A stretch of 56,075 nt of DNA, the filler included, from Rhizaria sp. SCN 62-66 (Eukaryota), in NCBI GenBank assembly GCA_001724265.1. It is 4 parts of 4 records of this genome, joined end to end, with 100 filler letters (N's around TTAATTAATTAA, not from the genome) between each part and the next. Parts side by side here need not be neighbours in the genome. Positions count along the whole stretch, not along the records: positions 1 to 14,161 come from MEDY01000707.1; 3 more parts are not named here. The stretch is one strand, 5' to 3'. A program made the position numbers and the translations under genes. The notes under the pieces are model-generated. The model saw only the letters and a list, made by a program, of their open reading frames with translations. It searched no databases and was not told where the DNA came from. Positions 1 to 28,200 of the stretch are shown one piece after another. The stretch's first letter is position 1, and every line of letters starts with the position of its first letter.

Positions 1-1
1 G

Positions 2-3000
2 TGGTACAGCGCCGGCGTCGAGTCGCTGTTTAACAGCGTCGGCGGCGTTCGCGGTACGATCCGCTTTTGCGATAGCTCGCCAGTCCTGTTCTCTGCAAGC
101 TCTGCGATTACAAACTCTGGTTGTTCAACGGTGTCGGCCGCTTCGACGCGCTTCGTGTTTACGTGCCCGGCTGGAGCGACTCTCGGCTCCGGCAAGGTCC
201 AGCTGAACATCACGAACGTCCAGTCGCCGATGAGCTCCGGCATGCCTTCCATTCCTGGTTACTGTTTGATGATTTATCTCACTTCTCAAGCAACGACAGG
301 TGTGCCCGTCACCGTCGCGACGTCGCTCGCGGCGGCCATCTCTGCTAACATGCGGACGATGACATACAGCTACACTCCAAGCTTGCTTGTGTTGACGCCT
401 GTGGCCGGTGATTTCACACAGGTTGTCTCAACGTTTAGCGGAACCTTTAACGTTGAGGCTGGCGAAACCCTCTCCACGTCCTCATCACTCACATTTACGA
501 CAGCGCTCACATCCTTTGACTTTTCCTCAGCCACCGTCACGAGCGGCTGCACGCTTGCCGGCGCTTCAAGTTCCCAGCTAGTGATCAGGCCGACCACGTC
601 CGTGGGTGCCGGCTCCATGATCTATTGCGCTGTCGCCAACATGCGCGTTGTCTTTGCCAACGCAGCCTCGCGTGTGTCGTCTCTTGACCCGTACACTATC
701 AACAAAGACGCGTTGAAGCTGACCTCGCCTTCGATCACCACAGGCATCTCTGCGTCGTCGCATTTTGTAATCCGCACCACCGGCACTGCTGCTTATTGGT
801 TTCATATGACGCCCATCGACCGTGCTCTTGTCCAAGGCTCTGTGTCCTCGACATCACGCCTGTTACAAGTCTCCATGCGCATATACTTTTATGCTACCAA
901 CCCCAGCGCAAGCGCCATCTCTTATGCGGTGACGTCGTCGTGCAGCGACATCACGCTTCTCACATTCTCACACCGTCAGGCTCCGTCACGCCGTCGGGCG
1001 ACTACCGCGTCACGCAAGGCACAGCTACGTCCATCAGGTTTGACGTCACCGCCTCGGCGCGCTACACGCTCGATCTCGCATGCTTTAGCATGGGAACTAT
1101 CGCTCGCGCTGTTGCTGCGGCGCAAGCGGTCTCGGCGTACTCGCGCCAGCTTGACTTTGTGTTCTACCCCGTGACCGCAAGCCTTGCATCTGGAATTAGT
1201 CTCACCGCCACCACGCACGAAGCTGCAACTGTCAACCTTGAGTATGAAGTTTTGGTTTATGCCCATGCAGCACTTGCTGCAAACTGGGGCTTTACACTGA
1301 CCATGCAAAGCGAGATTGCTCTGCGTGCTGTGGTTACCACCAGCACGGCTGCTATTACGTCTTACACGGCCGGCACCGGACTCACCAAGGTCACCTGCAC
1401 AGTCAGCCGCACTAGCGCAACTGTGGCGTCTGTGAGTGGCTGCGGCGCTGTGAGCGGTTCAAGTAACTATTATGCGCCGCGTGTGTTCCGCTTTGGTCCC
1501 GTGACTTCAACCTATGCCAACTATTTGTCGATGTTTAAGACTTATAGCACGGCACAAGGTGCCCTTGGAACGGTGTCTGGAGTGAGTGTGCCGATGCAAA
1601 ACTTAGACTTGTCCGACGACACAATTTTGGCCGCGAACTCGAAGCCCAGCGCTGTGGCTGCGCTTTATACGACGCGTGTTATCACTGCTACGGTTGCTGG
1701 TGCCACTACGTTGACCCCCACAGTCACTGGCTCGTCACGGCAGAACTATCTCGTGCGCGTCTTCTTCTTTAAGCGCTTTTCGACTTCAACTGTAACTTAC
1801 AGCTACAGTGGGTCATCGGGCTTGACCTCTAGTTCGTCAGCGTCAGTTGGTGTCTGTACTGGCTTCACGCAGGGCTCGATCACCTGTTCCTCGTCGCTGT
1901 TGCCAGCAATGTACTTTTCATTCTATACCGGTCAATATACCGTTGCCTATGAGAAAACTTCGTTCACAGCCTCTGAGTTCAGCTTCACAATCACCAGCAC
2001 ATACGTGACGGCAGGAGCCGACTCGACAACTGTGTTCGCCTTTGCCAGCTCTACGCTCGGTGCACCCATCATGTATAGCCCGCCGTTTGAGTTCACGACT
2101 GTTTTGACTGAGATCGCATGGGCCAGTACCGACCTGACTGCTAAGATCCACCTGTACCTATTCCCGCACACAGACGAGCTTAGCGCGTTCAACTTTGTTC
2201 TTCAGAGCAATTGTGGCGTCTTTACTACAAGCAAGCCCGTTGCACTGATCAATAGCCTCACGACTGGCACCTGTGTGAGTCGTTACAGCAGCGGCTTTGG
2301 GCAGATGTCGATGCCCGCAACATGTATGCCTGCGCAGCCTAAGTTCATTGGCTTCCAAATCGAGGCGGCCTACTTTTTGAAAGCTGCCCACAAAACGCCG
2401 TACGCAGCAACAAGTCTTGTTCCCGCATCTTGCTTCACGCTTGTTGACTCATCGACCTCGACCGCAATTACAGCGTTGCACAGCGTTGACATCGGGCCCA
2501 TCCCGCCGCCCAACGCGTTCATGTACGATGTGCTGCTTGTGCGCAGCTCGGCAGTATCCGTGCAGCGCGCGCGTGTTGACATTCACACTGTGCTGACTGT
2601 GTCCATTCCAGCGACTTCCGTCAAGGTGGCCATCACTGTTTCCAACTCCACAGCCGACAACTGCCCTGTCGGGCTCACGGTCACCACGGCTGAATTCTAC
2701 CCTCTTGGCTCTAGTTGTATACGTACATCAGCCGTGGGATCTGAGCTTGTTGCCACCTGCACTGGCGGCCCCTGGGGCAACAAGGACGTCTTTGCGTTTG
2801 GATTTGATCATGTCAACTTCCCGACGACCGTAAACAACGCAGATGAAACGCCCTACTTGGGTCCTGGCTGTATTTCTGTCAAGATGAGCTACGGGGCGTT
2901 CACTCTCACTGGCACCCCCATGATGCCCGTGTGGTCACGCCCACTGTTGACTGCTGAGCTCGAACGTACTCTCAGCGCAGATGCAACTCAGGGTGCGGCT

Positions 3001-6000
3001 TACCATCTAAGTCTTGACCTGGGCGATGAGAAGTTTGTGTCAACGACCAACGACTTTTCGTTTTTTGCTCTGCTACGCGGCTTTAGCGGTATTACTTTCT
3101 ATAGTCACAGTGGCTTTGTGACTACGAGTAAGATTGACTGGAAAGTGGCTTCGCCCGTGTCTAATGCGGTTGAGTTTGGTCCCAACACGCCTGTGTCCGC
3201 CGCTGGCGTGTGTCTACCCACTGCTCCTTGCACAGTTCGCATCCCTGTCACTGCCACATTCGCGGGCACAGTCCCGCTGTTTACGTCAGTAAACGTGTAT
3301 GTCAAGGAGACCTCAACGGGCCTGACACGGCCCTACGCCACGGCTCCCGTGCGCATGCCTGCAGGGGTGATTCGACAGCAACTGACGCTGCCCACAATGC
3401 CCTTGAGGGCAACAGCGTTTACCGTCACCGCAACTGCTGCTTCGCCTTTATTGCGCACGTTTTCGATTACTCTGCTCGACACCACAGTTCTCAACACAGT
3501 CGCTTTACAATACTGGGTGGTACAGCTACCTTTGACCGGTTTCACCTTCGCCAGTGCGGTATATACTCTCAAAATTGGTTCTGGCTCTACTTCAGCCGCT
3601 GTCTCTGTTCCCTCAGATGGTGAGATAACGATTCCGTACATCAGCACTATGGTCAACGTTAATGTTGTGATGACTGTGAGCAGTGTGACGCTCACGCTGG
3701 TGGAAACGCCTGAGCTTGTTACTGTGTCGCTGGAGCACTACTCGATGCGCAACACGCTGACGGCCAACAACACGCAGGCCGATCGTGTCGTTTCTCTTGG
3801 CTACAGCGCACTGAAGCAAGATACGCGCTCCACGTACACGGTATCAAATAACGCGTTTGCCGCAGGCCTCCGGCCCGTGTACGCGACCGCAAATTGCGCG
3901 ATGATTCTTGGACAGCCGCGCTACCAGATGAAGTGCACGGTGGTCTGGACCGGACTCGTTGATATTACGCCAAGCCTGACTCTTGCGCTTGTCACACGTG
4001 CTGCCTCGCCGCACACGACGCCCACGGGCACGCGGCTTGAGAGCGCGACGCGCATTAGCCCCACGCCAGTCTCCGCAGCCTGCACACCAGTGACTGCGGG
4101 TGCAGCGATTGGGATGGCCAGTTGTCTTGCAAACGGATACTCCGCGCTTACATTGGAAGTGCTTATCTCTGCCGTCAGCTTCTTGGTCGAGCAGCAACTT
4201 GAGATTGAGCTTCGCTCTGGCACTGCACGCCGTGCAGTTGCTCAGATGCGACCGCCCCTGGGTGTGATTGGGCTAACCGGTGTCGACTCTGTGTTCACCG
4301 CCGCGTCTTCGACTTCACACAACGGACTCCTTGTGATGAAGCCTGTGATATCGTACTATGCAAACACAATCTCCAGCGCGCTTTTCGTGGAAATCAAAGT
4401 CCTCGGTGGTAGTTTTGGCTCACGTTTTGTCGCTGACGCAAGCACAGGGACTACCGCCGTAACATTTAACAGCTGTGCTGTTGAATGCGAGCTTAACAGC
4501 ATTATTTACCCCAATGTGTCGACTTCTCTTCTCTGTCCGATCTCCAGCTGCACTTTGCCTGCATCTGGTGAGCTGACGGTTTCGGTTACAAGCGGCTTCG
4601 TGCCTGGGCCGACTACAGAAGAGCGTGCTGTGCTGCAACTGTTGATTGCAGCAACTGTGGTTGGTCCTGGTAACCGCCGCGTGCTCTACAGTGGGCTCTT
4701 CACCGCGCCGCGCGGCACGCTTACTGGTGGTGACACCTCTACCGGTTCTGACACAGTCACTGCAGGCACTTTAGCGCGCACAGCTGTGCATACACTGACC
4801 CCCGCGACCACATTATGCAATGGTGGTGATATTGTGCTTGATGACGGAGAGTACTTTCGTATCACGCCACCGCTATCAGCGCGCACCAACATGGCTTGGG
4901 ACGCACTGGTCGCTGCTCAGTACACCTGGCGCTCGCCTGATCTTGCCGCCAGCGGAACTACAACAGTAATGCTGACATCCAGTGTCTCGAGCAAGCAGCG
5001 ATGGATTCTCCTGCGCCCGCAGACCGAGGGCCGTGCGTATTGCTTTGGCGCGCGTCGACCGAATCTTATCGCCACGCTCCCCATCGTCATTCCTATGGTG
5101 GCGTTAGAGAGCTTAACGGTGGAAATTCTCTCTCGGGGCGGACTTGTCCGCTACAGACACCTGGCGCGTTTGTCATCACTGCCCGACACCGAGCTGCCCG
5201 CTGTACTGACGCTGAGCTCGCGCGCGCAAGGCGACTACTCCGCGGTGGGATATCTCAAGATCAACATCACCGACCTCACTGTTGCTCAAGTTAACGAGGC
5301 ACGCTTCTCGTTGACGATGGGATCGGCATGCAATTACTTCCCGGTTGTCGGCACCAAGACTTTGATTTCATCCGACAACGTTGCTCTTGCCGACACTTCA
5401 AGCGACGCCCTGCTGTACAAGACGCCTGTTGTGAACACACTTGAGTTTTACATCAAGGCTACCGCGATTCCTGTTGTTGCTTACGTCCCCGGTGTGTTTT
5501 GCTCATCCTCAGCCGACACTACAGTCACCGTCGCAGCTTACTACGGCATGAGTGCAGCCGTAGTGATGAGCAAGACTGCGACGCTGCCTGTGGCAGCGCC
5601 AATCCCCAAAACACAAGTTGCAATGTACGCGATGCACCTGAACGGGAAATTTGCAACAGCCGCTGGTGCAATGCGTCCGCCCGTAGCAGGCATCGCTGGC
5701 TACGCTTTCAGCGATAAGTTCGACATGTCGTTCATTGTGCTCCCCGCTCTTGGTATCCCACCTGGCTATTATCTCTCTCTTATCGTGCCATGGGTCACCA
5801 CAGGAACGTTCACCATCTCCGTTCTTGACTCCACGCACGCTGCCGTCGTCAACACTGTCCAGACTCTGGTCCCGGCCGAGCGGCGCGTGTCGGTGCAGTT
5901 CATCAAGGGCTGGCCCGCAGGTACGCCTTTAATAATTGTGCGCAGCGGTTCATCTGTTGACCCAACTGTCACGTCGCGTGACGTCACGGCCAAGATCACG

Positions 6001-9000
6001 ATGACTCTTGACAGCATGACGAGCAATATTCTTGAGCAGGGAACCAGCACAGTGCCGCTTCGCTCAGACTGGTACAAATCGTTGACATCAAGTGTTGTCG
6101 TTGCGCCGACTGTTCTTGGCAGTGGTTACTCACGTGGCGTGTCTCTTACAGTTAATTTCCGCGCTCCAGCCGCAACATACATTGCGCTGTCACCGAACCC
6201 TCGCTCAGTATTGCTCGTGCAGTTCCCGACAATCGATGTTGCTGCAACAGATGCTGAGCATGAGAGTGCCAAATTCATTTACTCTAACGCCGGCAGTACA
6301 ACTCTGCAGTGTGGGTCGCTCGCTGTGAAGACGCTTGCAACGCCACGTGAGTTTGGGCGTTATGCGAGTGCTTTGTCTGCTGATGGCACGACTGTCACGT
6401 ACGCTCCTGGCTTCCGTGTCGAGCTTGAGTATCAAGTCGCCTCGATCAACGACAACTGCGTGCTTATCGTGACACATCTGCACGCGAGCAACGTTTATTA
6501 CCGCGATGCTCTTGCATCAGTCAGTAAAGCTACGGTGACGCTACTTTCTGGCGCAAGCGCGACTGTGCTCAATAGCTTTTACTACAGCACTTCAGCGGCT
6601 GCAGTTACTACAACTGGAGTTTTGAAGACAAACGCTTTGCCGACACCATGGGCAGTGATTCTGCCGTTATCACCATTGTCGTTTGACTCGACATCCACGC
6701 TACGTTTCTTGTCTTCTGGCAACGAGCTCTCTGTGATGGGACCTCAAGCTTTCTTCTATTCAGCCTCAGCTAGCACGCGCAATGAACCTGGCTTTGCGGG
6801 ACTCGGTGACGTCTTTTCGATTGCGCTGCGTATGCAAATTAAGTTAGTACCAACATCAGCCACTGCAATGTGCTTCTCATTGCCTGTCGGGACTAATTCG
6901 AGCGTTACGTCTATCTCCCTGTATGTAGACGGTCAATCCACTGCGTCGCCCGCGAGTGTTGCCGCAAACGCCACACTCTGTCCTGACGGACTGCACGACG
7001 TGATATCGACCTTTGACGCACTTTCATTCACGGCGGACTCTGCAGCACGCGGTGATGCACAGCGCGCTGTCCTACCCACGCAGTGCGTTTGCACAAATAG
7101 TGATTCTCTTCCTGTTGTCTTAAAGCTACCTGGCTCGATTATGACAGTCGTTATTCCCGGTGTCCGATTTATGCCCTCGCTGACTGCTGATCCTGTTGAG
7201 TCGCTGCGTATGTCCCCACTAACCATGGCCGCACCTGTTACCAACATCAATGACACGATGAGGACTGTTGCCGCGCCTGCTGTATCTGTAGGCGCTGTCC
7301 CGCCGCGCAACCGCATTTTCCCTCGTGAATTCCACATCGCAGATCCATTGACGCCCTTCGCTGATCTTGCACAAGTCTCCGCCGCAGCAGCTGCACCAAG
7401 CATGTCGCTTATGTATGCTGTGGCCTTAGACGGGTTGTACGTTGCCTCACCAAAAGTGACGGTACCGACAACAACGCCGACGGCCTATGTGTCTCCGCAG
7501 ATCAGCACGCTTTCTGCCTGGAAGAGGCTCACGTCCGTGGCTAGTAGCCGTGTGTCACTTGCGGTCGCGCCAGATGACACTACAGTTGTGCTCAACTCCG
7601 ACAACAAGCAGATGACAGTCATTGAAACGTCTTACGATGACACTATCAGGACAGCAGAGATCCCACTTCCACTGAATGACAAACAATCATTGCATCCTCA
7701 TACGAACACTCACGAGGCACAGTTATTTGCTCCCATTATTCTCGGCTGGCAAGCACGCACCAGTTACACTGCAAGCACACCCTCAGCAACGGTGGTTCTT
7801 CCTGTAGGCGGTTCGTTACATGTCTTTAGTTTCACTTCAGAAGGCCAGTCCAAGCTCTTGCGCACCGAGTATCCTCTTGGTGAAACCAGCACGATTACTT
7901 CTGTCGCGTCAAGTCCCGCCGCGCTCGCGTTTGTGGTTTGTGGTACTATTCCCAATGTAACTGGTGCGCATTGCGTCACTGTCAAGCAAGCTCTTGGTGT
8001 TGTAACGTTCACTACATCTGCGCGCATCACTATTGACTCTCGGGCTGGATTTGTTCCTACTGCCGCAGACCTGTGCCCCGCTGGATACAACGGACAGACT
8101 CTGGATGCCTGTTTCTTTGTTGCCGTCCGAAACGCTGACGCAGCCGCTCCAGCAAGCACAATCTATCGCATTTCGCTTGGGGCTATTATCAGCGTAACGC
8201 GCGCCGCCTTTGTACCTGACATTCAGGTCGTTGACCTCAAACTCACGTCGTTTGCGAACCAGATTGTCATTTTGCGCAATAACCCGAACTTGACTCCGCT
8301 TGCATCAGTTGAGATTGTGGTATTATCACGTATAAGCGACAGCTGGCTCTATGAAGTCGGTGACGATCTTAGCAGCATTTTCTTCACTCTTCCGTCAACG
8401 GATGCAGTCCCATCGCAACGCAATCTTCCAGCGCTCGTTGCCTCGGCAGACCGTGAGTCTTTCATAGTTGCTGCAGGCAACGCCGCACAGTGGCGCTCAC
8501 TCAAGGCGCTCCCTGTGCTAAACAACGCTGTTGCATTGACGCCGTCTTTGACGGCAATGTCCGTCCAATTTTCTCGCGCCTCAACATCTCATCAGATATT
8601 CTTTGCCAGCAACACGTTCGCGCTGACGCTGACACTTGCGGGTTCGCTCTATAACGGCTCTATACTGACTCAAACGCTGCGGACTTCATCGAGCGTTAAC
8701 GAAGTCAGTGTATCGCTACCATTAACCACCGCAGCGCCGTGGTACGTAGCTGACTCGATATCACCCTATTCAGCTGCTCTGGCCTACGGCGTTCATCCCG
8801 CAACTACTGGTGCCAAGGATATCGAGCTGTCTTCGCACTTGCGCATGGTGACAATGTTTCCCAATACTGCTGGATTTGTCGCCGCTTCCGATGTAATGAT
8901 CCCTGAAAAGAGTTGGTTTGGTGGCATAGTTCCGACGCTCGTTGGTAGTCACATTGCAGACCCTATGATGAGCCGTGGCACGGCCACGACATGGCGTGTG

Positions 9001-12000
9001 TGGTTTACTTCACCTGATGCGCTGCACACTCCCGCAACTTGGACTCTTGCATTGCGCTATGCGACCGTTGCGCAGCAAGTCGCCACGGTTTATGCCACCA
9101 ACGCCAACTGGACTCTTTCAGTCACCTGCACGCCCGGGCTCATTGGTAAAGTCTCGTGCGCACCGCGCGCATCTGCAGTGACGGATGTTGCTACCAACAC
9201 GCCACTGCTCCTGCGGCTTGATCTTGATGTGACACTGATTGCGTCTGCTGACCTTCAAGCGACGTCCCAGACAGGCAGTAACTCGTACAGCCTGATGACC
9301 ATGACACGTGGTGCAACTACCGTGCCGACGCAGCCCTTCAGCTACGTGCGGCCTGCCGTCAAACCTGCCGGATATTTTGGGTTTGCACACCGTGCTCCAC
9401 TCGGTGCACACTTGCCCAGGCGCGGGCCTGGACAGGTAAGTTGGTATGCCAACTCTGAGAATGCATTGTGCTACACCTTCGCTCGAGACTTTTACGGGTG
9501 CTATCGCTTCACACACCGCAGCAACGTGATCACTGGAGACTGGGTTGCTGCACGCAACGCTGCGACTGCACCGAGTGTGGACATGCCTTCTGCGTACGGA
9601 CCCCAAGGGACACTTGTCAGCCTCGTCACTAAAACACGCACAAACAACATGGTTAGCGCCATGCGCTTTACTGCGCCTGACCCGACGACTGGTCCTCCTG
9701 CGGCCAATGCGCTTCCGAGCTATTTGGATCTGCCTTTTGATTCCAGTATGTTCTCTTTCCGCCTTGGAACTAGTGGTGCTGCACACATGTATATTGTGTT
9801 ATCTGCGGAGCTTACTGGTGGACTTGTCATCATTTACAATGATGCCTATGAGGTTGTTATGCTTGTGCGCATGAACCCACGCACAATGCGTGCGTCAGGC
9901 ACCGACAACATTTTGACTGAAGAACTGTACAAGCGCATGGATACTCCAATCAAGTTCCCTGGTGCTGCTGCTGGTGACCGTATTGTTGCTACATTTGACT
10001 GGACCGCGCCCAGGTCACTCACGAACTTTTCACAGCCCACTACGCGTGTTGTGTTTGTCTACGCTTCAGGCTTGGTACGCGCGTGTGTCGCCAACCTTCG
10101 TGAGAGCTCTGCGACTGCCAACCGTGGCACTGCTTCTTTTACTGCGGACAGCGCACGCTTCTCGTGTGCGCAGGCCGACGGTGCTACAACGCACTGGGTT
10201 ACTAGCAGTGACGGCACTGTGCTCACACCAACGTCTGCGGTTCTTGCCGTCTCTAACGGTGTGGCGTACATCGGCACTGAAGAGAGTGTTATTGTCGCCG
10301 TGAAACTTTCATCCACCACGGGTGTGATCACGATCATAGTCAACCATGTACCTAGCCTCTCGACCGTCTGTCCTATCGCCGCACTTGCAGCTCATCCCTC
10401 AGGGCGAATTCTGACTGCGGCATGTGCTGACTCTGGCGCGCTGTTAAGCATTCGCGTCCTGCACAGTGAGGACCTGGGCCGCTACATCTTGCGCGGTAAT
10501 CAAACGGCAGGCTGCATGGTGCACGTGCCTGCCGAGCCAACGCGTGACCTCACAAAAGCGGATCGGTTAGATTTGCTCTCTGAGAGTGTCGACTCGTACC
10601 GTTACTTCGTGTACGAAGCTGGGTTGCGCACTGTTGTCGCCATGGCGTACGCGCCGCACGGCACGCATCTCGCCGTAATGGGCACGACAGACGTGTCCCC
10701 TAGCAACACAATGCAGTTTCTGCGCATGGCTGAAGAGACTCCGGTCATATTCTCCCCGAGTAGGCTTGGTGGTGGTGTTTTAGCGAACTGGACCTTTACG
10801 TTTTCCTTCGAAAGCTTTGCGTACCCGGCATTGCCCGTGTGCACTGTGCGGGGTCCGCAGTCCACATCGTTTACGGGCGTCACACGTGTCACCGTCACAA
10901 CGAACCCTGTGACTGTAAACCGCACGGTCACAGCCATCACTCAAACGGCACATCGACTGACATTTACTGGTACTGCAACAATGACGGCGACTACTGGCAC
11001 CTGGGAGGTTGTTGTAGAAAACGTCATGAACCCAATCATGAATGTCACTCAGGAACTTCAAGCTAGCATTTCTTGCTCACACTTGGTCACGCCACAAAAC
11101 CCGGGCAATAGTCTGTGGTCAGCAGATAACTTGGCCCCGATATGGACTGGGCCCTCGCTGCTACCAGGGTTGCATACGGTCGCTGTGATATCTGCGCCGA
11201 CACCAATCACGGCGGACTCGTATCCATGGTCATTAGCGTTAATGTCGCTTGCTAGTGGCAGCCCTGTCGCGCTGACATACCTCCCGCCATTTTCGCGCGC
11301 GCCGCTCGCTTTGCAAGACGTTGTTAAAATCGGCAAGTCGCAAGTCTTCCGCGTGCGCGTGCGGCTCCAAGATGGCAATCCCGCGCCGTGCATTGTTGGT
11401 GACGGTGAAGCGGTCATCGTGTCGATTGCCACCCGCACAGGCATTTCGACAAGTTTTATGCTGAGTTGCTCCGCTGCGACAACGTACGCCAATCCTATCA
11501 TTGTTGAACTCACACCTTGGGTTGGTACTCTGGCTACAGGCTATGCAGCAGCACTCCCCAGTATTTTGACCAAGCCTGTGCGTGTGACCCCGACGTACTT
11601 CCTCACAACCACCGTCCGCGTTGGTTCCACCGTGAACTCAGAGCCGGTTTCATACCCTGCTGGTGCCGATACAGACGTAATCTTGCGCTTTAACGTGCCC
11701 ATGACTGAGGATACGTCGTACACTCTTTCATTTTCCACGGCCAGCGGCACCTGTCGTTTCTATAACGCCGTCACTGGCGATGGCCCTACGACAAAGCTTA
11801 TCGGCTCTATCACGCTTCCAGGCGACTTAGACCGCATTGACGGCAACAGCATCCTCATTGGTCGGATGCGCTGCTCTGCGCCGTTCAGCCCAGGCGTCAC
11901 GATCAACATGGTCATTCCTTCTGACAGGGGCTTTGTAGGAGACACGATGCCAGTGCGTCCCATTGTTGGCACTGTGTTTGTGCGTCCCACCATGACGTAC

Positions 12001-14161
12001 GCGCTTGAGTTTAGCATTGGCGCCGACAACCCGCCTGTCGAACTTGCAGTGCTGGCACAGCCTGCTTTTGCAACACGCTCTGCGGTCAAGCTGGAGCTGC
12101 TGCGCAACGGACTGCCACTTGGTGTACCTTGCTCACTGATGGCAACATCTAGTAGTGCAGCTGCTCGCGTGCGTGCACTGACAGTGCAGCTCACTTCTAC
12201 AACGTATGCTGCAATTAACTGTCACGAGAGTGTGGCGCCGACGGACAACATTGCGCTCTCAGTCTCATTCCCCACCAATGATGGCTCATACGATGTGGTC
12301 ACAACGAACTACATTACGGCATGGCTGCGCTCGACTGTACGCATGCTAACTGTAATGCCGACTGGCGTGGCAGCTCCAACAACGCTTCCTGTCTTTACGC
12401 CGTTCTACGTTGAGTTTGATACGGAGATCCGCGTTGAGCGCTACACAACAAACAACTACCGGCACTCGGCCGGCGGTGATGCGTGTGCCTTTGCACCGAT
12501 TGCAAGTCTGTCCAAGTTGCTGCACATTAGGAATGATGACGAGTATCAAGCTTTAATCGCTGCAGGTGTCATATCGGAGCAAATGACCGAACGCGTCAAC
12601 CTCATCTCGACAAACACGCAGCGTCACACTGTACTTGCGGTCTGCAGCACCGCGGCAGTGGCTTTAGGTACGAGCGTTGATTTCACACTCGCGCGTGTTG
12701 GCGACTCATACATCTATCCTGCACGGCTATCAAACCACGCAAGTGTTGTGAAGATCAACTTCACACCTAAGGCCGCTGTATATGATGCAGCACGTGCACC
12801 CAACCCTCTTGGCGCGACGCCAATGACGGATATTGCGCCTTATGAGTACTTTGTCGATACGTTGCCGCTGTCACTCACACTAGAGTGGGTTCTGCCTGTT
12901 GTACGTACAAGTTCCATGACTGTTTCCGTGTATATGCTCAACAATGCGCCTTGCTACTTCAACAACAATACGAACATCACCAGCGCAAGTGCTACTGTGT
13001 TGCCCGAAGATTCAGAGTCTGGAGCGATAGTGTTCACTGTAGTCTGCACCGTGATGCGGTACTCTGAGCAATTTTTCACGCGCATTACAGATGACGGCAC
13101 GGGCAATGTCGTTGCAGAGTTGACAGCGCTTCAGGTGCGCATTACTGGGCGCATTACATTGACAGCGGCGCTGCCTACCACAGATACAGCTGTTGCAGGC
13201 ACGCTTGATTTGACTGATAGCACCAAGACAGTTAGTTTCCCTCGTGCGGTTACAGTTCCAATGACGTTGACATTCCGTCCACCGCTTGCTGACAACGGCG
13301 TGATTCAACTCAGCTTTACAAACCCTTCTGCCGACTGTTTCTTCAAGGCCTCTGCAGTGAATGCGGCTGATACACTCACAAAAGACTCTTATCTTGTGGC
13401 CGGTCTCTCGGAGGTTGCTTTCTCAATCACATGTGCCCACCCCGCGTCAGACCCGCCCCGTGTTAGTGCCGTGTTTGCCGAGAACTCTAAGGTATATTAT
13501 GACCGCTTTGAGTCCAGTGGACTCCAGACTAAGGGTGAGCTGCGGCTGACGATCAACAACAATGCTACCGCTTCTTACTTGAGCTTCGTTGTGCGTGAAA
13601 CGTACATTATTAGTGGTGAGTTTGTGCCCACACCGAAGCTTTTGCAGACTGTGCCCATCAAGCAAATCACTACGCCTGGTGATTGTGTGTTTCTGTTGAA
13701 TGACGGTGCGGCGCTCTACACGCGGGAGCCCGTGTTCAAACAAAAGTCCCTCACAGAACCGTTCTTCGCGCGCATGGTATGCCGTCGTACGCATGGTGTT
13801 GGTTCGATTCTCTTGATTACAAGTGACGCATACACAGGCGAGACAATTGGCCCGACTCCTGTGTGGGGCCTGATTGGAATGGATTTCTTTGTCCCTCCAA
13901 ACATTGTGGGCGTCAACCGAGAAATTACTGACCTTGTGGCGCGTGAAAAGTTCAGCACCACTGCGGTGACATCTGGCGCAGCGGAACTTCCAACTCCATA
14001 CGTGCTGCGCGTACCGGCGACCAACACAACGCAAGTGCGGGTGCGCATGATTCCGTCGGTATTGGCAATGACCATTGTGTACGTTACTTTCACAAAGACC
14101 AACGGTCTCTGTGGCTTTACAACCTACTCAGAGTTGGGTGATGCTACTTTTTCGTACACTG
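2..14161 (+). CDS. Giant (>4,700 aa, partial at both ends) intronless S/T/A/V-rich multi-domain protein, probably secreted or cell-surface; one frameshift at 957-972, so possibly a pseudogenised allele
   Basis: Frame 2 is open from base 2 (WYSAGVESLFNSVGGVRGTIRFCD...SCSDITLLT). The frame-1 ORF (796-14217 in the track) continues in the same style from 973 (PSGSVTPSGDY...) to the contig end. Removing one TTCTCACA copy fuses them. Low charge, alternating hydrophobic beta-strand pattern, paired Cys, many N-x-S/T sequons. Confidence 0.85.
957..972 (+). repeat. Perfect 8-bp tandem duplication TTCTCACA-TTCTCACA causing the frameshift in the giant gene
   Basis: 957-964 and 965-972 are identical. Deleting one copy gives ATC ACG CTT CTC ACA CCG TCA GGC (ITLLTPSG) and restores one ORF. 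Confidence 0.9.
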
Positions 14162-14261
14162 NNNNNNNNNNNNNNNNNNNNNNNNNNNNNNNNNNNNNNN
14201 NNNNNTTAATTAATTAANNNNNNNNNNNNNNNNNNNNNNNNNNNNNNNNNNNNNNNNNNNN
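14162..14261. other. Artificial contig linker (N44-TTAATTAATTAA-N44, stops in all six frames)
   Basis: 100-bp N spacer with TTAATTAATTAA at 14206-14217. Confidence 0.98.
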
Positions 14262-16981: not shown

Positions 16982-18131
16982 ACAAAGCGCCCCCGATAAA
17001 CGTCATAATTTTAAGCTCTTGCTCTTAATCAAGACCGGGATAAGCTCCATAACAACAACCACTCGAGTTTGAGGACATCTTTCGTAGAGGCTGTGTCACT
17101 CTGGCTCGTGGAGCGAGGTCACATGTTGGATGCGGAAAGCAGCGACACATGCATTTTAAGCATCACAAGACCACGCATTTTCTAAACGAAATAGTAGTAC
17201 TAATAACATCTCAAAACCAGTTCGCACGGATCGCGTGTGGACACAAAAACAATACCAAAACAAAATACACTGTAGTACGTACATCAAGTAACTTTCACGA
17301 TTGCGTTTCGTAACGTATTTGTGGGTGCTCGGTCACTCAGTCATTGAGCAGAGCTTCAATCATAGCATTGCTACCTGATTTCGCAACCAGAATCTTAGCA
17401 ATATTCATCAACACTCTTTCGTAGGAGCAACTGGATTCGCCAATGCGAGTCACTTTCCATCGTTACAATGCTGTCGGAACTGCTGGTTCGATTGAAAACC
17501 TGGATTCTCGAAGTAATGCCACGTGTGAGAGTTCGTTTATATTTGTTCACTGTTATAATCAAAGCCAGTTGATGCAATGTTATGCTTTAACTTTGCTGTT
17601 ATCTCACATTGATGGCGTTGATAGCTTCTCTCTGTAGTGAGGGGTGTTAGATGACGTTTGTGGTGGAAATCATCAAGGCGATTTTCGAGATCATACGTCG
17701 TCTCATGGGATTAATATGAAGATTTTAAGAAATAATCCCCAAGATACATTACGAGTACAATGCCAATTTAAGTTTGTGAGAGCTTCGCAGCAAGGGTTTT
17801 ACGTCTTAATGATCAAATATGCTTTTCACCACAAAACGTTTTTCCATGGTTTCGGATATTGCGAGCATCCACAAAGAGGAGGGTCGCTTTGTACACAATT
17901 AAGAGTAGCCCACAAAGACAGCCGAATCAACTGCCATAAATTGTTTTCAATAGTTCATTTTAATTTATATACATTTACTGATTTTGTTATTTCTATGGGA
18001 GCTTCTACTTATCTCTACACGGCCTCTAAGCAGAGTCCTTGACAAGTCTGTGTCTGACCGTTTGCATTCCTGTCTTTTGCTGCGGCTCCAGGTTTTAACT
18101 CAGACTCGATACAGATACCCCTCGCATATCT

Positions 18132-21100
18132 ATGAGCAACTCGCGTCGCAAGCTTGCTGACAAGGCCCGCGCGCTTCTGCAGGATGACATCGACGACATT
18201 CGCAACGAGAACCTCGCCAACCCTGCAATGCACAAGGGCGGCCGCGGCAGCAACGGCGGGGGCTACGACGACGACGTCGACGACTACTACGACGATGATG
18301 ACGAGTATTATGACGAAGACTACGAGTACTACGACGAGGGTGACGCCGACGCGGACGCGGACCTCGATGGCAACAACAACAGCGTGGGTGGTGCCACTAC
18401 TGCCCCCGCTGCTTCATCCTCAGGCAAGCAGCAGCAGCAGCTGCCCGCCTTCAACGGCGCCATGGTGACCGATGACCCCGCGCTGGCGGCCGCCGACTTC
18501 ATGTTTGACGACGACGACGATGGCGAGTTTGCGCCCCAGCTCGGCTCTCATAGTGATGAAGCGGGCGCGGACGTGGCCGCCGGCGCGCACGACATCACCG
18601 ACGCCGCGACCGACGCGGCCCGCGCCGCCGCCAGCTCCGGCTCTACTGCTGTCACTGCTGGTGCTGCTGCTGGCGCCGCTGGTGCTGCTGGCTCTGGCGC
18701 AATCCGCCGTGCCGCGGCCCCGGCCTCTGCCCCTGCTGCGCCCGTCGCGCTCGACCTCACCACTATCACAGTGCCCTCCCCGGCCACTGCCGCTGCCGCC
18801 ACGCCGACGACGGCGACGGGGACGGGGACGGTGACTGTGACGTACCGGCGCGCGCGCTTCGCGGACCGGCTGGGCGCGCTGGCAGACGACGTGCTGACGC
18901 GCATCTGCGACTACCTCGGCAACAGCCAGGCGCACTTCACGCTCTACGTCCTCTCGCGGGCGTGCGCGCGCTTCGTCAGCACCAAGGCGATGAACTTCGC
19001 CGTGCCGCTGCACAAGCTGCCACCGCGCGTCGTCCTGCACGGGCTGCGGCGCCTGCGCACCGTGCCGACGCTGAACCTGGCCAACTGCACGCGGCTGGCG
19101 ATCCTGCCGCAGATCGCCGCCGCCGTCGACTGCCGCGCCGTGCGCTCGCTCTCGCTGGCCAACCACAAGCTGCTTACGCCCGTGCTGCTGGGCGACCTGG
19201 TCGAGCGCATGACGGCGCTTGCGCACATCGACCTCAGCGGCTCCAACGCCACCGACTCGTGCCTAGACCCGCTGCTCGCCGCGGCGGCCGCGTCGCTGCG
19301 CAGCGCCGACGTGTCGGACACGAAGCTCACGACCAGCGGGCTGCTGCGGCTGCTGCGCGCGTGCCCCGTGCTGGAGCGCCTTGTTGCGCGCGGACTGCCC
19401 GTGTCGCTCGAGCTCTGCGCCGGGCTCGCGCGCCACGCCGCGCTGCGCAGCGTCGACCTCTCGCGCTGCCGCAGCCCACATGGCGTGCTCATCGTCTTCC
19501 CGCCCGCCGCGCCGCTGGCCGAGTTCGTGTGCAGCAGTCCCGCGCTGCCGGCGCTCACGCTCAGCTGCGCGGGCGTGCGCACCGTGCGCGTTGACCGCGC
19601 GCCCGCCGGCTTTGCGCTCACGCTCGCCGTCCCGGCCGCGGAGACGCTGAGTCTCGAGCGCGGCCGCAGCGACACCGAGGTCACGGTGATGCCGTACTTC
19701 TCTGAGCCCACGGCGCTGCTGAAGCGCGACGCGGCGGCGACGGTGGTGCTCGACTGCACCGATCTCGCTCGCCCCAGCACGTGGAATGCCGCGCCCGGCT
19801 CGCGGTACCACGAACTGTTACTCAACGAGTACGCGAACAATGTGCGGAAGATTGAGCACCGCGCCACGCGCGCGCCCGCGCATCCGCTGCTGCCGCGGCT
19901 CAAGACGCTCAGTCTTGCCGGGTGCAAGTACGCGCCTAACACGCTGTCGCAGCTATTTGCCCACGCACCCGCGCTCAAAACGCTCAACCTCGAGGCGTAC
20001 AAGGAGACGGAGCGCCGGCTGTGGCTGAGCATGATGGCCGGCAACGCGCTGCAGAACCTGACGGCGCTGACCATCAACCCGTACGCGGTGATCCCGGCCG
20101 CCGAGAGGGATCGGCTGATTGACGTCATGTCCGCCGCGGTGTTCGAAGACGAGCAGCGCGCCGCGCGCGACGCTCAGTACAACAACAGCAACAGCAACGA
20201 CAACGATGATGATGACGATGTCTGGGGCCCGAACCGCAACCACGACAGCGACCCGTTTGGTCTCGGTGCCATCGACAGCAGCTTTGCTAAGAGTTCCAGC
20301 GGCGGCGGCGGTGGCGATGAGGCTGACGCGCGCAGCAGCTTCGACGTGCGGTCGTTCGCGCTGTCCGACTCCGCGAGCGCGTACTCATACGCTTCGGCTA
20401 ACGCGATCCGCGCGCTCGCCACAGGCGCCGTTACGGCGGGCGTCAGCGGGCTTGACTTTACCGCCGCGCGCGCCGCCGTCGCGGCCTTCAACCGCGATAA
20501 CGCGCGTCCGCTTGACTGGGACACGTGCTCCGTCGCCTCGGTGCGCTCGGCGCTCTCCGCGGCGGCCTCGCTCGCCAACAGCAGTATGGCCAACGATGCC
20601 AACGCTAATAAGGGCGGCGCCAAGAGCGCTGCCTCTCGCACGCGTTCCGTCGCGGGCTCCATTGCGGGCTCGAGCGGCGGCTTCAGCCTGGTGTCCAATA
20701 TCAGCACGCAGAGCGTTAGCAGCCTGGGCTTCGGCTGTGTCGCATCGTCGTCGATGCAGTTTGTGTCGCGACAGCCCGCGGCGCTGGTGGCGCCCGCGGC
20801 CGGCACCCGCGCCGCCCGCGCCGCCGCCGCCGCCAAGCGCGCCCGCCTCGCCAGCAACAGCAACAGCAACAGCAACAAGAGCAACAGCAGTAGTGGCTCG
20901 TTGCGTGACAGCTGGGTCGACTTCAATCTGACTGATGACTTGGAAGATGACGCGGACCTGGCGCTCACGCTCACGCCCTCGGGCGCGGCGCGTGTGATGA
21001 GCAGCGAGGCCCCCAGCGAAACGCTTAGCCGCGAGCTGAGCCGGGCCCTCACCGGTGACACCGAGGATACCGACGCCGACGCTGCTGTGACGGTGGCGGT

Positions 21101-21602
21101 GGCGCGCGAGACTGCGGTTGCTACGGGCTCCAAGGTCAGGGCTGCTCCAACCGCCGGTGCTGCGGCCGCTGCGCCTGCGCCTGCGGCTGCGCAGGCGACG
21201 GCGACTGCGACTGCTTCCCCCGTTCCTGAGGATGACGACGAGGATGGGCAGGGGACTGACTTTGAGTTCGATGCCATCAGCTTGACTAGCAATGGTGGCT
21301 TTCAGAAGAAGTCCACGGCGGCCGCGACGGTTGCTACGCGTGACGCTCCGGCGCCCAGGGCTGAGTCGGCTGAGTGTGACTCCGGCGCTGTCGAGGCTGA
21401 TGGGGCCAAGGCTGAGGTCGTGAAGACGGGCGCTGACGGCGGCGTTGCGGGCGTGTTCGCGCCGCGCACGTGGATGGACGCGCCGCTGTGGAACGCGGGC
21501 GCGGCGAAGCTGGCCGTGTTCGAGCCCCTCAAGGACTGGGATCCGATCGAGGACAACGAGGACGACAACAGCGTCGGTGACGAGTTCGAGTTGCTCGAGT
21601 AA
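18132..21602 (+). CDS. F-box / leucine-rich-repeat (FBXL-like) protein, 1156 aa, intronless
   Basis: F-box-like LGALADDVLTRICDYLG...LSRACARF, followed by LRRs (LNLANCTRL, LSLANHKLLT, IDLSGSNATD, VSDTKLTTSGLLRLLRACPVLERL, VDLSRC, LKTLSLAGC). Acidic/Tyr-rich N-terminus and disordered C-terminus; ends TAA. Confidence 0.8.
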   Translation: MSNSRRKLADKARALLQDDIDDIRNENLANPAMHKGGRGSNGGGYDDDVDDYYDDDDEYYDEDYEYYDEGDADADADLDGNNNSVGGATTAPAASSSGKQQQQLPAFNGAMVTDDPALAAADFMFDDDDDGEFAPQLGSHSDEAGADVAAGAHDITDAATDAARAAASSGSTAVTAGAAAGAAGAAGSGAIRRAAAPASAPAAPVALDLTTITVPSPATAAAATPTTATGTGTVTVTYRRARFADRLGALADDVLTRICDYLGNSQAHFTLYVLSRACARFVSTKAMNFAVPLHKLPPRVVLHGLRRLRTVPTLNLANCTRLAILPQIAAAVDCRAVRSLSLANHKLLTPVLLGDLVERMTALAHIDLSGSNATDSCLDPLLAAAAASLRSADVSDTKLTTSGLLRLLRACPVLERLVARGLPVSLELCAGLARHAALRSVDLSRCRSPHGVLIVFPPAAPLAEFVCSSPALPALTLSCAGVRTVRVDRAPAGFALTLAVPAAETLSLERGRSDTEVTVMPYFSEPTALLKRDAAATVVLDCTDLARPSTWNAAPGSRYHELLLNEYANNVRKIEHRATRAPAHPLLPRLKTLSLAGCKYAPNTLSQLFAHAPALKTLNLEAYKETERRLWLSMMAGNALQNLTALTINPYAVIPAAERDRLIDVMSAAVFEDEQRAARDAQYNNSNSNDNDDDDDVWGPNRNHDSDPFGLGAIDSSFAKSSSGGGGGDEADARSSFDVRSFALSDSASAYSYASANAIRALATGAVTAGVSGLDFTAARAAVAAFNRDNARPLDWDTCSVASVRSALSAAASLANSSMANDANANKGGAKSAASRTRSVAGSIAGSSGGFSLVSNISTQSVSSLGFGCVASSSMQFVSRQPAALVAPAAGTRAARAAAAAKRARLASNSNSNSNKSNSSSGSLRDSWVDFNLTDDLEDDADLALTLTPSGAARVMSSEAPSETLSRELSRALTGDTEDTDADAAVTVAVARETAVATGSKVRAAPTAGAAAAAPAPAAAQATATATASPVPEDDDEDGQGTDFEFDAISLTSNGGFQKKSTAAATVATRDAPAPRAESAECDSGAVEADGAKAEVVKTGADGGVAGVFAPRTWMDAPLWNAGAAKLAVFEPLKDWDPIEDNEDDNSVGDEFELLE

Positions 21603-22040
21603 GAGGCTTATGTAGCGATTTATCTTGCGAGTAGAATATTTTTCAGTTTGTATACAGTAGATTTGATATTGAATACACATAATAATACGTGCGTGGTTCC
21701 CATCTTCAAGTTGAAGTCGCATTGAATACGTCTGTAACGTAACACAGCGTTGCGAGACTTTTTTGTGGTCGGATGGCGCGGTTGGACGGCTTGAGAAGTC
21801 GGCCAGCAACACAAGGATCGGAAGCTATGTCATCAACGAAATTACATTGTTTTGAGGCAGGTTATGAATTTAATGCACTGTTTTCTGAATAATATCGTTT
21901 ATGATTTTCAACAAACCCTCATCTGGCATCGCACAACTTTCAAGACGCGACCTTTTCCTCGCTCCACAGTCGCACAACTTTATCACCAGGAATTTTGACC
22001 AGGCGCGAGCACTTTTGCCGTCTTTGAGCAGCGCTTTGGG

Positions 22041-25207: not shown

Positions 25208-28200
25208 CTAAATGCTCTGGTCGTAGTAGGACCCGTCATTGCCGTCTTCCTTGTTGTGCCCATCGGCCGACACCACTGCGTTGTCCGTCGTCCGGTTCAT
25301 CGCCGGCGCGCCGACCAGCGCGGCCAGCGGGTCCGCCGCCACGCGGTAGTCGCGCACGACGCCGTACAGCGCCTCAGCCGCCAGCGCCGCGGCGTCCGCA
25401 CTCGTCGCGTCGCCGCCGCTGCCGCCGTTGCTGCCTCTTGCGGCGGCCGCGGCGCTGGCACGGTGAGTGGCGAGAACAATCGCGCGCGGGATGCCTGGCA
25501 CCACGGCGCGCGGCCGCAGCCCGGTCCACTGGAGGATGTTCTTAAGGTCTTCGCGCTCCACCGGCGCGTCCACCTCAATCTCCATCTCATCCACCGTGGC
25601 AGCGCTCTTGCTGTTCTTGCTGTTATGATTGCTGTTGAGCTGAGGCTGCTTGCGGAGCGTGCTGCGTGCGGCGCGCGGGAGCAGAGGGCCCGCGGCGGCG
25701 ACGCGCGCGGCGTTGCGCGTGGGCGTGGCAAGCCCGTACTTCTCATCGTCGGCGTGCACGATGTCGTCGAGCAGGTGCTCCACGCGGTACACGTCCTCGA
25801 TCTTGCTCGCAACGACGCGGAAACGCGCGACTTGCATCAGAAGCGCGTCGCCCAGCGCGCGCTGCTTCTGCGCCCACGCACCAAGCGCAGCGTTGGTCGT
25901 CTCAACCGACTCTGCAGCAGTGGCGGACGCAGTGGTGGCAGCAGCGGTATCAGCGGCGTCAGCAGCGGCGAGGACGACTGTGGCGAGGTCCTCAACGACC
26001 TGGGCCATGACCGGCGATGGAAGGAGCCCCAGCGCCGCGGCCTCTGTCGCCAGCGGGTCGCGCAGCCCCGCCAGCGGCGTATGCTCACCCGACAGCACCG
26101 GCGGCGCGCGCTTCGCACTCCCACCGTCAACACGGCCGTCGCCAGCAGTGTTGAGCGAGACGAGTGACTGCGAGCGGTCGAAGTCGGCGGCCTCGCGCGC
26201 AAACAGCCACGCCGCGTGCGCGCGCTCCATCGCGTCGCCCCAGTCGGCGAGCGCGCGGACGGCGTGCGCGGGGGCCTGTGCGGCGAGGGCGGCGCGGAAC
26301 AGCGTCCAGTAGTCGACGGCCGCGAGCTCCACCACGGCCGCCGCGAACGTCGTTGGGCGCGCCCAAGGCATCACCGCGCTCGCACTGCTGCTGCTGGCGC
26401 TGTTGCTGTTGGTGCTGTTGCAGTCGTTCTGCTGTGGGATGAGGCCGGCCTCGCGGGCGGTGACGCGGACTTCACGCCCGTGGACAGCGCTCGCGTACGC
26501 GTTGGCCTGCTCGGTGAAGCACAGCGACAGCTCACCGAGGCTCTTGGCGACGTCAGCCATCGCGAACGGCACGCCCGGCATCGACAGACGAGCCGCGCCG
26601 AAGCCGCACAGCGACACGGGCGGAAGCATCACGTTCTTAGCGTTCTTGGCGCTGTTGGCGATCGCGGCGGTGACGCCGGAGACGACTGCGGCCGTGGGTG
26701 TGAGTGTGTCGTCCAGCGACGCGCGCGACGCGGACATCGCGCTCGCGGCGTGCGCGTACAAGTACAGACCCGCACGCAGGTCCTTCGCGGCCGCGGCCAG
26801 CTTCACCGTCGCGCCCACACTGGCGGCGCTCGAGTTGCTCCCGTGACCGTTCACGACGGGGCGGAGCGTGGAGACGAACTTGAGCAGGTCGGTGACGACA
26901 GCGTTGCGCGAGAGCTGCCCGCGGTGCTCGACCTCCTTGCCCGTCGACGGCTCGAGCTGGCCGGGCAGCAACCTGCGCGCGCGCGCCCCGGCGCCGGCGC
27001 CGTCGACGGGCAGCGCGGGCAGCCCAAGCGCGAGCGCGGCGAGGTACGGCAGCGCGAGGTCGGGTCGCGGCGAGGACGTAAGCAGCGTGCGCGCGACGGC
27101 CGCCACGGTCGCGGGCGCGAGGACGCCACGCATCGCCATCTCGGCCAGCACGGCGTCGACCAGTAGCGGGCCCGCGGCCACCGGCGCGCCGACGGCGAGC
27201 GAGACCTCGTGCGCGCGGAGGCTGCCCGCGCCGCTGTGGGGGTACATAAACCCGAGCGCGGGCGCGCGGCCCAACGCCAGAGCCAGCGCGGGGAAGCGCA
27301 CGGCGTCCTCGCGGGACAGCGCGGCCGCGCGCGGGGCGAGCTTCGCGATGACCTGCTGCGCGGACGCTGGCGGGTTGTACTGCGCGCCGACAAGCGCCAC
27401 GGCGTCGGCGTGCGTGCGGCGCGCGCGCGGCAGCACCACGGGCACCGCTCTCAAGGCAACCGCCCCCGTCGCAGTAGCCGCCCCGCTGTGGTTGCTGTGT
27501 GTGTGTGTGTGGTTGCTGGGGGGCGCGGAGGCGGCGGCGGCGCGCGTGAGCGCGATGAGCGTCGAGTGGTAGTTGAGCGTGCGCGGCTGAACGTCCGCGG
27601 CCTCGAGGAACTGTCGCTGCTTGGCCTCGGCGAGCGGAGACGCGAAGTGGACGTTGCCGAGGATGTTGGCGAGCGCGGGCGACGACAGCAGAGGCACCGT
27701 GGCCAGCGTGCGCGCGTGTGCCGACTGCTTCGGGGCCAATGCCGCGGCGACGAGCTCCGCGGCCGACGCGTCCTCGCTCGAGCCAGGGATGAGCGCGCCT
27801 GACCCGGCGGCGGCACCGCCGGTACGCGAGGCGGAACCGGTGGGACTGATGAGGCCCGCGGCGACGGCGCGCTCAACGGCTGCGGACGCCTTCTTGGTGC
27901 GGAAACGCAGTGCAGTGAGTGCGGCCGCGGCGGTGGCGACCCGCGGCGCCAACCAATCCTCGCTCGGCACGCTGCTGCTGTTGTTGCTGCTGCTGTGAGA
28001 GTTTGCCGCTGCGGCGGTCTTGTAGTCGGCCTCGGGGACGACGGGGAGGCCGAGCAGCGCGCAGAGCCGCGGTTGCGCGACAGCGTAGCGCGCGGCGGCC
28101 TCGAGTGACCACGGCACGTCGCGCGGCAGCGGGCGCGCGGAAGGCAGCGCGGAGCCCAGCATCGCCGCCGCCACGGTCTCCTCGCTCTCAGCCTCCTGCA

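Follow-up and report, generated by a model that had tools for sequence, protein, structure and literature searches.

What kind of protein would need more than 14 kb of uninterrupted coding sequence? The question is raised by the first contig (MEDY01000707.1, positions 1-14161) of a 56,075-nucleotide stretch of DNA from Rhizaria sp. SCN 62-66 (assembly GCA_001724265.1); this whole stretch is called the window below. The contig is filled by one + strand reading frame over 2..14160, and its product is referred to as the giant. We favour, with somewhat more than even confidence, the reading that the visible giant forms the distal ectodomain of a receptor of about 8,000 amino acids (aa), a multipass membrane protein for adhesion or contact sensing; how it signals is held with lower confidence than what it is. 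Giant modular receptors as a theme are already known, and what is new here are about 3,700 residues of unrecognised domains and an unnamed family.

The giant reading frame and its single lesion

Frame 2 of the contig has no stop between the window edge and 1174, nor has frame 1 from 688 up to the linker that follows the contig. Joined as 2-964 and 973-14160, the two give 321 + 4,396 = 4,717 stop-free codons. With the base composition of the contig, chance alone would put 157 stops into the longer part of 4,396 codons (log10 P = -69), and the remaining four frames do contain 132-317 of them. Since none was found where 157 were expected, the open reading frame (ORF) is real coding sequence. In the residue numbering used here, an X at 322 marks the break between the two parts, and residue i >= 323 starts at nucleotide 973 + 3(i - 323). 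The parts are as follows.

2..964, + strand: ORF part 1, frame 2, giant residues 1-321; open at the left window edge and collinear with the relative P0005 from residue 122
957..972, + strand: exact 8-bp tandem duplication (TTCTCACA twice), causing a +2 frame shift; the sole disablement in 14 kb
973..14160, + strand: ORF part 2, frame 1, giant residues 323-4718; runs stop-free into the N linker

The sequence-only reading had described over 14 kb of coding sequence with a single 8-bp lesion, and this description holds. Its statement that the frame is open at both contig ends needs rewording: on the right the frame meets the assembly linker (14162-14261), and on the left merely the edge of the window.

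It could be argued that the gene is a dead fragment, a pseudogene disabled by the 8-bp duplication; we consider this unlikely. The frameshift is real in the assembly, and the G+C content at third codon positions (GC3), well below that of the other genes in the window, would fit relaxed selection on codon usage. However, there is one lesion in 14,159 bases and no further disablement, which the earlier reading had linked to a dead fragment. The alignment to P0005 continues collinearly on both sides of 957-972, with Cys residues kept on both sides, and GC3 varies little over the length of the gene (0.50-0.61 across nine blocks). Death of the gene, if any, would be very recent, and an assembly error is at least as likely; the duplication is an artefact of assembly or else a lesion of very recent date. 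For annotation, the gene should be recorded as truncated by the assembly and with a frameshift present, in a window that is a chain of unlinked contigs.

Search for relatives and known domains

The visible giant (4,718 aa) had no Pfam match, and NCBIfam returned only a 13.6-bit chance match. A search of Protein Data Bank (PDB) sequences with the single giant protein and with a six-member family profile gave no matches at E <= 1. When the six members of the corresponding alignment (A3) were all scanned with Pfam, only DUF3098 came up, in one member (E 0.077). A word-index homology search with the full-length giant found nothing although relatives exist, because its low-complexity composition swamps the word filter. 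In the ESM Atlas, there was no usable match to the C-terminal 1,199 aa; the N-terminal 2,046 aa matched clusters without names (0.91-0.92, recognition low at 1131), one of them labelled mostly Perkinsozoa, and we treat this as a lead only.

Relatives were recovered by an exhaustive phmmer search of 1.84 billion cluster representatives with the last 1,199 residues. It found nine proteins of 162-7,944 aa, all at E <= 1e-30 and with 27-76% identity. P0005 (7,944 aa) aligned to giant residues 122-4718 as a single collinear BLAST segment (32% identity, 4,709 columns) and extends about 77 residues further upstream than the giant. P0014 (3,379 aa), found in a second search, shared 79% identity with the giant in its last 342 residues and continued past them. 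The C-terminal part of P0014, used as a query, retrieved 13 proteins at E <= 7.9e-148, including P0014 itself and three of the nine from the first search (P0003, P0006 and P0009); all 13 come from ENA or JGI and are unnamed or labelled "hypothetical protein". The first organism-named match to this query was from Triparma verrucosa, confined to the Cys-rich repeats (27% identity, 11% of the query). No published description of the family was found in a literature search, which does not prove its absence. The earlier claim that the giant belongs to no recognisable family holds in that the visible 4,718 aa match no Pfam, NCBIfam or PDB sequence, but the protein does have relatives, and the C-terminal third of the family, hidden here, consists of well-known modules.

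A second BLAST segment, off the collinear diagonal, joins P0005 residues 5-195 to giant residues 650-833 (nucleotides ~1954-2505; 31% identity, E 2e-15). An ancient duplication within the protein might explain it, as might a P0005 N-terminus that is chimeric or wrongly modelled; P0005 had no self-match corresponding to it.

Cys residues are far more conserved than the average residue across six relatives, as the following comparisons with the giant indicate.

P0005: 63/70 Cys kept, overall identity 34%
P0003: 23/24 Cys kept, overall identity 44%
P0007: 29/30 Cys kept, overall identity 32%
P0009: 21/22 Cys kept, overall identity 29%
P0008: 25/28 Cys kept, overall identity 39%
P0011: 23/28 Cys kept, overall identity 24%

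Structural disulfides of a secreted or extracellular protein look like this, and the pattern speaks against a gene that died long ago. The ORF is real and under constraint.

Identity peaks at residues 3201-3400 and 4601-4718 and elsewhere is about 23-40%. Residues 3201-3400 (nucleotides 9607-10206) form the best-conserved 200-residue block, with 43-53% identity to five relatives that share 29-44% overall; identity to the most distant relative, P0011, is 20%. This block, which has no family match and is folded with the least confidence, is a candidate for the functional core.

Domain order of the relatives beyond the end of the window

Past the window end, P0014 contains the rest of the eighth Cys-pair unit, three more such units, and then Sushi, EGF-like, TIG, Cys-rich repeats and membrane helices. 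P0005 and P0003 have the same domain order. Among 18 relatives scanned with Pfam, 11 had Sushi, 11 IPT/TIG and 14 ephrin-receptor-like repeats (Ephrin_rec_like, PF07699); TNFR_ELAPOR1-like and DUF7630 matches were sub-threshold. The Sushi repeats of P0014 start at residue ~776; eight can be counted by eye, and Pfam reports four stretches. The EGF-like module in the relatives was likewise identified by eye from the sequence.

The membrane region of P0014 comprises a first group of helices, a low-complexity loop of about 600 aa and a second group. Hydropathy analysis of the five relatives that reach the end of this region revealed 6-9 strong hydrophobic segments in two groups: 2 + 5 in P0014 and 3 + 5 in P0003, with 3 + 6 obtained by reading the sequences. 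The second group in four of the 18 relatives (P0009, P0014, P0016 and P0018) matched profile positions ~187-407 of 426 of PF06011 (TRP) at E 2.8e-5 to 9.5e-4, with 18.5-23.6 bits against a cut-off of 28.5. PF06011 is listed as the fungal Flc/TrpR family. These matches, all below the gathering score and in a region outside the window, hint that the membrane core may be distantly homologous but do not establish membership.

By extrapolation, the window gene may encode 4,718 + about 3,040 residues plus an N-terminal piece, or about 7,800-8,000 aa. The suggestion that the protein could be much longer than its visible part is borne out by the collinear 7,944-aa P0005 and the continuation in P0014. 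A surface-type, membrane-tethered giant, as had been proposed, is favoured by the approximately nine hydrophobic segments that follow the Sushi, TIG and Cys-rich modules in P0014.

A self-BLAST of P0005, the giant, P0008, P0007 and P0011 gave only two overlapping off-diagonal matches, both at P0005 5156-5503. Another protein, P0024 (4,931 aa), is a relative of the C-terminal part only and contains 33 ephrin-receptor-like and 17 TIG stretches as well as F5/8 type C domains. It shares only the Cys-rich part, evidence that the membrane-proximal cassette is reused with other ectodomains.

The relatives also bear on whether the contig could be a contaminant carrying a bacterial giant adhesin, which we regard as highly improbable. 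In its size, its beta-rich Thr/Ser/Ala/Val composition and its absence of introns, the giant is like bacterial fibrillar adhesins, and the Ig-like domains of PrgB are among the structural matches described below. On the other hand, Pfam and NCBIfam detected no stalk or adhesive domain of such adhesins in the giant. A pattern scan of one genome per bacterial or archaeal species produced 30 pattern matches, none of which was confirmed as a relative. The relatives that do exist have Sushi, TIG and ephrin-receptor-like repeats, a multipass anchor and a long disordered cytosolic loop.

C-terminal Ig-like units

The last part of the visible giant (residues 3733-4718) consists of seven complete Cys-paired units and one cut-off unit with a period of ~120-155 aa, in agreement with the earlier estimate of about eight repeats. 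With the three units that follow in the relatives, the family total is 11. The array was delineated from Cys pairs, profile alignment and AlphaFold2 (AF2) modelling.

11203..14160, + strand: array of Ig-like beta-sandwich units R1-R8
11203-11565, + strand: R1
11566-11943, + strand: R2
11944-12297, + strand: R3
12298-12765, + strand: R4, with a helical insert
12766-13149, + strand: R5
13150-13497, + strand: R6
13498-13923, + strand: R7
13924-14160, + strand: R8, truncated and without the second Cys

The seven complete units aligned in register in profile-profile comparisons; five of 21 pairs had E < 1e-3, the best being R5-R6 (5.8e-6), and R4 had no significant match to the other units. The AF2 model A2 (residues 3690-4718, 11 alignment rows) is a string of 7-9-stranded beta modules with a mean predicted local distance difference test score (pLDDT) of 61.9. 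In it, 424 residues score 70-90, and model residues 590-920 (giant 4279-4609) score 72-88. A Foldseek search of A2 against PDB ranked tandem Ig-like arrays best (E 1e-11 to 1e-7). The matches included ciliary central-apparatus proteins (9ijj, 7sqc, 7som), MST1 (9b4h, 8wa2, 8tx1), PrgB, and the macroglobulin (MG) domains of alpha-2-macroglobulin, C5 and CD109. With moderate confidence, the last ~1,000 aa of the visible giant are predicted to be tandem Ig-like beta-sandwiches.

N-terminal region and propeller-like segments

The remaining part of the visible giant was divided as follows.

2..7734, + strand: N-terminal region, residues 1-~2576; Thr/Ala/Ser/Val-rich, of low charge, with conserved Cys pairs
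7735..8526, + strand: first propeller-like all-beta segment, residues ~2577-2840; a weak assignment from an AF2 model (A1) and Foldseek
9424..10686, + strand: second "propeller-like" segment, residues ~3140-3560; contains the best-conserved block 3201-3400, pLDDT in A1 mostly below 50

No recognisable domain or internal repeat was found in residues 1-~2576. Of 84 profile windows compared with the C-terminal unit, 82 had no significant match within residues 1-3700 (best E 0.029), and the two significant windows overlap the C-terminal units themselves. Comparing windows of residues 1-3700 with each other (300 pairs) gave no match (best E 0.009), and a self-BLAST of 150-aa tiles of the giant gave no off-diagonal matches at 1e-3. 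The long run of non-identical modules proposed by the sequence-only reading could therefore not be demonstrated by sequence in residues 1-3700, where conserved Cys pairs and a period-2 hydrophobic pattern only hint at beta modules.

Model A1 (residues 2540-3560, 8 rows) has a mean pLDDT of 47.1. Its residues 38-300 form about 24 short strands, and pLDDT reaches 55-79 only at ~50-230 (giant ~2589-2769). Foldseek ranked multi-propeller proteins best (SF3B3, CPSF160, DDB1, Elp2, Sevenless), with query-normalised template modelling scores (TM-scores) of 0.10-0.17. Alignment of each propeller-like segment with itself by hhalign gave no blade repeat, and Pfam found none of the beta-propeller families WD40, YWTD, FG-GAP, Kelch or NHL in the giant, so that membership in a known propeller family was rejected. 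Of the two propeller-like segments described earlier, a low-confidence fold resemblance is left at ~2589-2769, while neither segment has a blade repeat and the second is mostly below pLDDT 50. A propeller fold of residues ~2577-2840 is weakly suggested by the model.

Composition of the visible protein

The giant is rich in Thr (12.5%), Ala (11.5%), Ser (10.6%) and Val (9.8%) and poor in Lys (1.7%) and Glu (2.5%); it contains 70 Cys, with D+E = 286 and K+R = 283. The longest homopolymer is AAAAA. No transmembrane-like stretch is present in the visible giant (maximum KD19 1.99). The period-2 hydrophobic pattern exceeded the helical one in eight of ten blocks of ~500 aa, weakly at 3001-3500 (0.52), and equalled the shuffled value at 2501-3000 and 4501-4718. 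Over residues 1-2500 it was as strong as in the part modelled as beta-sandwiches. The evidence favours an all-beta chain that lies outside the cell, is braced by disulfides and forms the distal part of a membrane-anchored giant.

Comparison with known systems

Besides the Flc/TRP-like proteins treated above, three known systems come close to the family, and it was compared with each. The nearest in design among described proteins are the cysteine repeat modular proteins (CRMPs) of Apicomplexa and ciliates. According to PMC9815656 and PMC9670195, they combine ephrin-receptor-like with EGF-like repeats, nine transmembrane helices in Toxoplasma and Plasmodium, and long cytosolic parts. These sources present them as essential for rhoptry discharge and as proposed host-contact sensors triggering exocytosis. 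Their conserved core is given as two EGF-like domains and nine transmembrane helices (PMC9815656). Compared by description, the relatives of the giant share a very large Cys-rich modular ectodomain, ephrin-receptor-like repeats and about nine hydrophobic segments. In the relatives, a Cys-rich EGF-like stretch (the sub-threshold DUF7630) precedes the 6-9 segments, which were counted by hydropathy alone. The differences are that CRMPs, so described, carry Kringle or MAR domains and lack the Sushi/TIG series. Besides, the visible giant contains none of the CRMP core, as the contig ends before it, and the ephrin-receptor-like repeats occur in the relatives only (14/18) and not in the window part. 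No protein named CRMP was among the matches of the P0014 C-terminal search.

Mastigoneme proteins of Chlamydomonas are the second system. MST1 is reported to have a Cys-rich domain of the growth-factor-receptor type after nine Ig-like domains in tandem, and MST3 to carry a giant ectodomain on a PKD2-like membrane domain, likened by its authors to PKD1 (PMC11015965, PMC10602792). The likeness of the giant to MST1 in tandem Ig-like domains is at the fold level only (AF2; Foldseek matches 9b4h_A, 8wa2_D and 8tx1). By sequence, 8tx1_A was the best PDB match of P0014 (E 9.7e-14), in the Cys-rich region only, whereas the Ig-like part of the giant has no sequence similarity to MST1. The giant protein is also four times larger, and the family anchor is not a recognisable PKD channel.

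This likeness suggests another explanation, that the ectodomain is shed or polymerised (as a hair or mastigoneme-like filament, coat, scale or extrusome content) and is not part of a receptor. MST1 is among the top Foldseek matches of the Ig-like rod, and the Cys-rich region of P0014 matches it by sequence. MST3 is described as tying the mastigoneme filament to the PKD2-like channel (PMC11015965), and the CRMPA ectodomain as possibly cleaved (PMC9815656). Nevertheless, the Ig-like matches are generic, and ectodomain and anchor stay in one chain in the relatives. The hydroxyproline-rich polyproline-II helix by which MST1 assembles into filaments is absent: PPP occurs once in the 4,718 aa of the giant, where Pro makes up at most 0.175 of any 40 aa, and the Pro-richest stretches of P0005 (0.325, in the cytosolic loop) and P0014 (0.225, at the start of the Sushi region) contain no polyproline segments. 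MST1-like membership was rejected on this test. Nothing points specifically to the coat, scale or extrusome protein that had been considered from the sequence. Overall, a shed or polymerised product has a small probability in our estimate, and a membrane-anchored receptor is preferred.

Polycystin-1 (PKD1) is the third system and resembles the family in having a huge Ig-like-repeat ectodomain on a multipass membrane core. PKD, REJ, GPS and PKD_channel Pfam matches were absent from the giant and the 18 relatives, and PKD family membership was rejected.

Other contigs of the window and the origin of the giant gene

As noted, the window is not a single locus: four contigs are strung together by three artificial six-frame-stop linkers. 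The long ORFs of contigs 2-4 encode eukaryotic proteins.

14162-14261, no strand: linker N44-TTAATTAATTAA-N44 (N runs); artificial join to an unrelated contig
38739-38838 and 49017-49116: linkers of the form N44-TTAATTAATTAA-N44, identical to the first
18099-21602, + strand: leucine-rich repeat (LRR) protein
21999-24875, + strand: XPD/ERCC2-type helicase (DEAD_2, HBB, Helicase_C_2) on contig 2; uninterrupted single ORF with low-complexity inserts, GC3 0.85
25208-30472, - strand: 1,754-aa ORF without a Pfam match
32578-37494, + strand: ankyrin-repeat protein
44226-46571, + strand: metallophosphatase with EF-hands (PPEF-like)
49117-53684, - strand: RCC1-repeat protein

Because linkers separate the contigs, these genes are not neighbours of the giant ORF, and neighbourhood arguments across the linkers are invalid. 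The PPEF-like, RCC1, ankyrin, LRR and 1,754-aa ORFs contain 15-27% Ala, runs of Ala, Asn, Ser or Gln, and GC3 of 0.70-0.92, and the spacers between ORFs on these contigs have 43-45% GC. Such very GC-rich coding DNA against AT-rich non-coding DNA is an unusual contrast. The absence of poly-Ala/Gln inserts from the giant, noted earlier as a difference from the other genes, is confirmed by the long Ala, Asn and Gln runs of those ORFs, with the limitation that the contigs compared are unlinked.

The same scope applies to codon usage, where the giant gene, at GC3 0.57, falls below the 0.70-0.92 of seven ORFs on the other contigs. Contig 1 could thus be foreign to the other three (a contaminant, a co-cultured eukaryote or a recent transfer), an explanation that is compatible with a receptor and that we judge rather unlikely. 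It would also fit the GARP/FYMINK ratio (1.47 in the giant versus 2.5-6.5 in six non-housekeeping ORFs), the fact that only artificial linkers join the contigs, and the lack of a paralogue of the giant on the other contigs at E <= 1 in tblastn. However, the conserved XPD gene of contig 2 also has a low GARP/FYMINK ratio (1.30), and a GC3 of 0.57 could arise from nothing more than weak codon bias, given intergenic DNA of 43-45% GC. Among the G/C-ending codons of eight four-fold families, C is preferred to G to a nearly identical degree in the giant and the other ORFs (r = 0.99; for example, GGC 0.80 vs 0.85 and CGC 0.83 vs 0.81), although two families drive this correlation and such a pattern is common. 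Agreement in the T-over-A third-position preference with the ORFs of contigs 2-4 was weaker (r = 0.64). The C-over-G agreement and the composition of the spacers argue for one genome. Rfam and tRNA scans of the window gave no matches and thus no taxonomic marker.

Proposed organisation and function

The window would hold the distal (N-terminal) ~60% of a gene for a cell-surface protein of ~7,800-8,000 aa in a eukaryotic microbe. From the distal end, the visible part would comprise an unassigned region of ~2,570 aa, a probable propeller-like domain, the conserved domain 3201-3400 and the Ig-like rod. The missing part is expected to contain three more Cys-pair modules, Sushi, EGF-like, IPT/TIG and ephrin-receptor-like Cys-rich repeats, and a membrane anchor of three helices, a 600-850-aa cytosolic loop and six helices (about nine in all). 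A stalk perhaps 100 nm long may project from the plasma or ciliary membrane. Prey, substrate, mate or matrix could be the partner bound by its distal domains, and contact or tension might be relayed into the cell by the multipass core and the large loop on its cytosolic side. A long modular ectodomain with Sushi, EGF, TIG and Cys-rich modules on a multipass core with a cytosolic loop is the design of a contact or adhesion receptor. That the window gene has the same C-terminal part as its relatives, together with its topology, length, ligand binding and signalling, we infer.

Several observations weigh against the receptor reading. The C-terminal part lies beyond the window, and that the window gene has it is an extrapolation from P0014, which is 79% identical. 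At the left end of the giant ORF neither a start codon nor a signal peptide is in view, the start of P0005 is not signal-peptide-like, and the gene carries a frameshift in the assembly. Confidence is low to moderate in the two AF2 models (mean pLDDT 47 and 62), and the Foldseek TM-scores of A2 were only 0.09-0.20, kept low by the use of the whole multi-domain chain in the comparison. The giant has 22 N-X-S/T sequons against 35 +/- 5 in shuffles, a depletion despite 23% Ser+Thr that is at odds with a heavily N-glycosylated coat. The giant gene is a compositional outlier, and its GC3 gap to the ORFs of the other contigs makes its expression level and organism of origin less certain. Finally, none of the relatives found among the matches is named.

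A bolder version of the receptor reading, which we put forward tentatively and consider doubtful, is that these proteins are undescribed "filament receptors" of ~8,000 aa from an unnamed protist lineage. A rod of more than 5,000 aa made of novel beta domains and Ig-like modules, a built-in mastigoneme-like hair, would be joined within one chain to a nine-helix CRMP/Flc-TRP-like core and act as a mechanosensory or contact trigger, for example, of exocytosis or feeding. If so, contact sensors of the CRMP type would be found far outside the alveolates, and several new families of extracellular domains would be defined by the first ~3,700 residues.

Giant surface proteins govern the contact of protists, both free-living and parasitic, with prey, hosts, mates and substrates, and very few have been studied. 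The family described here pairs ~3,700 residues unrecognised by domain libraries with a receptor-like multipass anchor. If this anchor is related to CRMPs or TRP-like channels, the family would be an independent case of a very long extracellular probe coupled to signalling.

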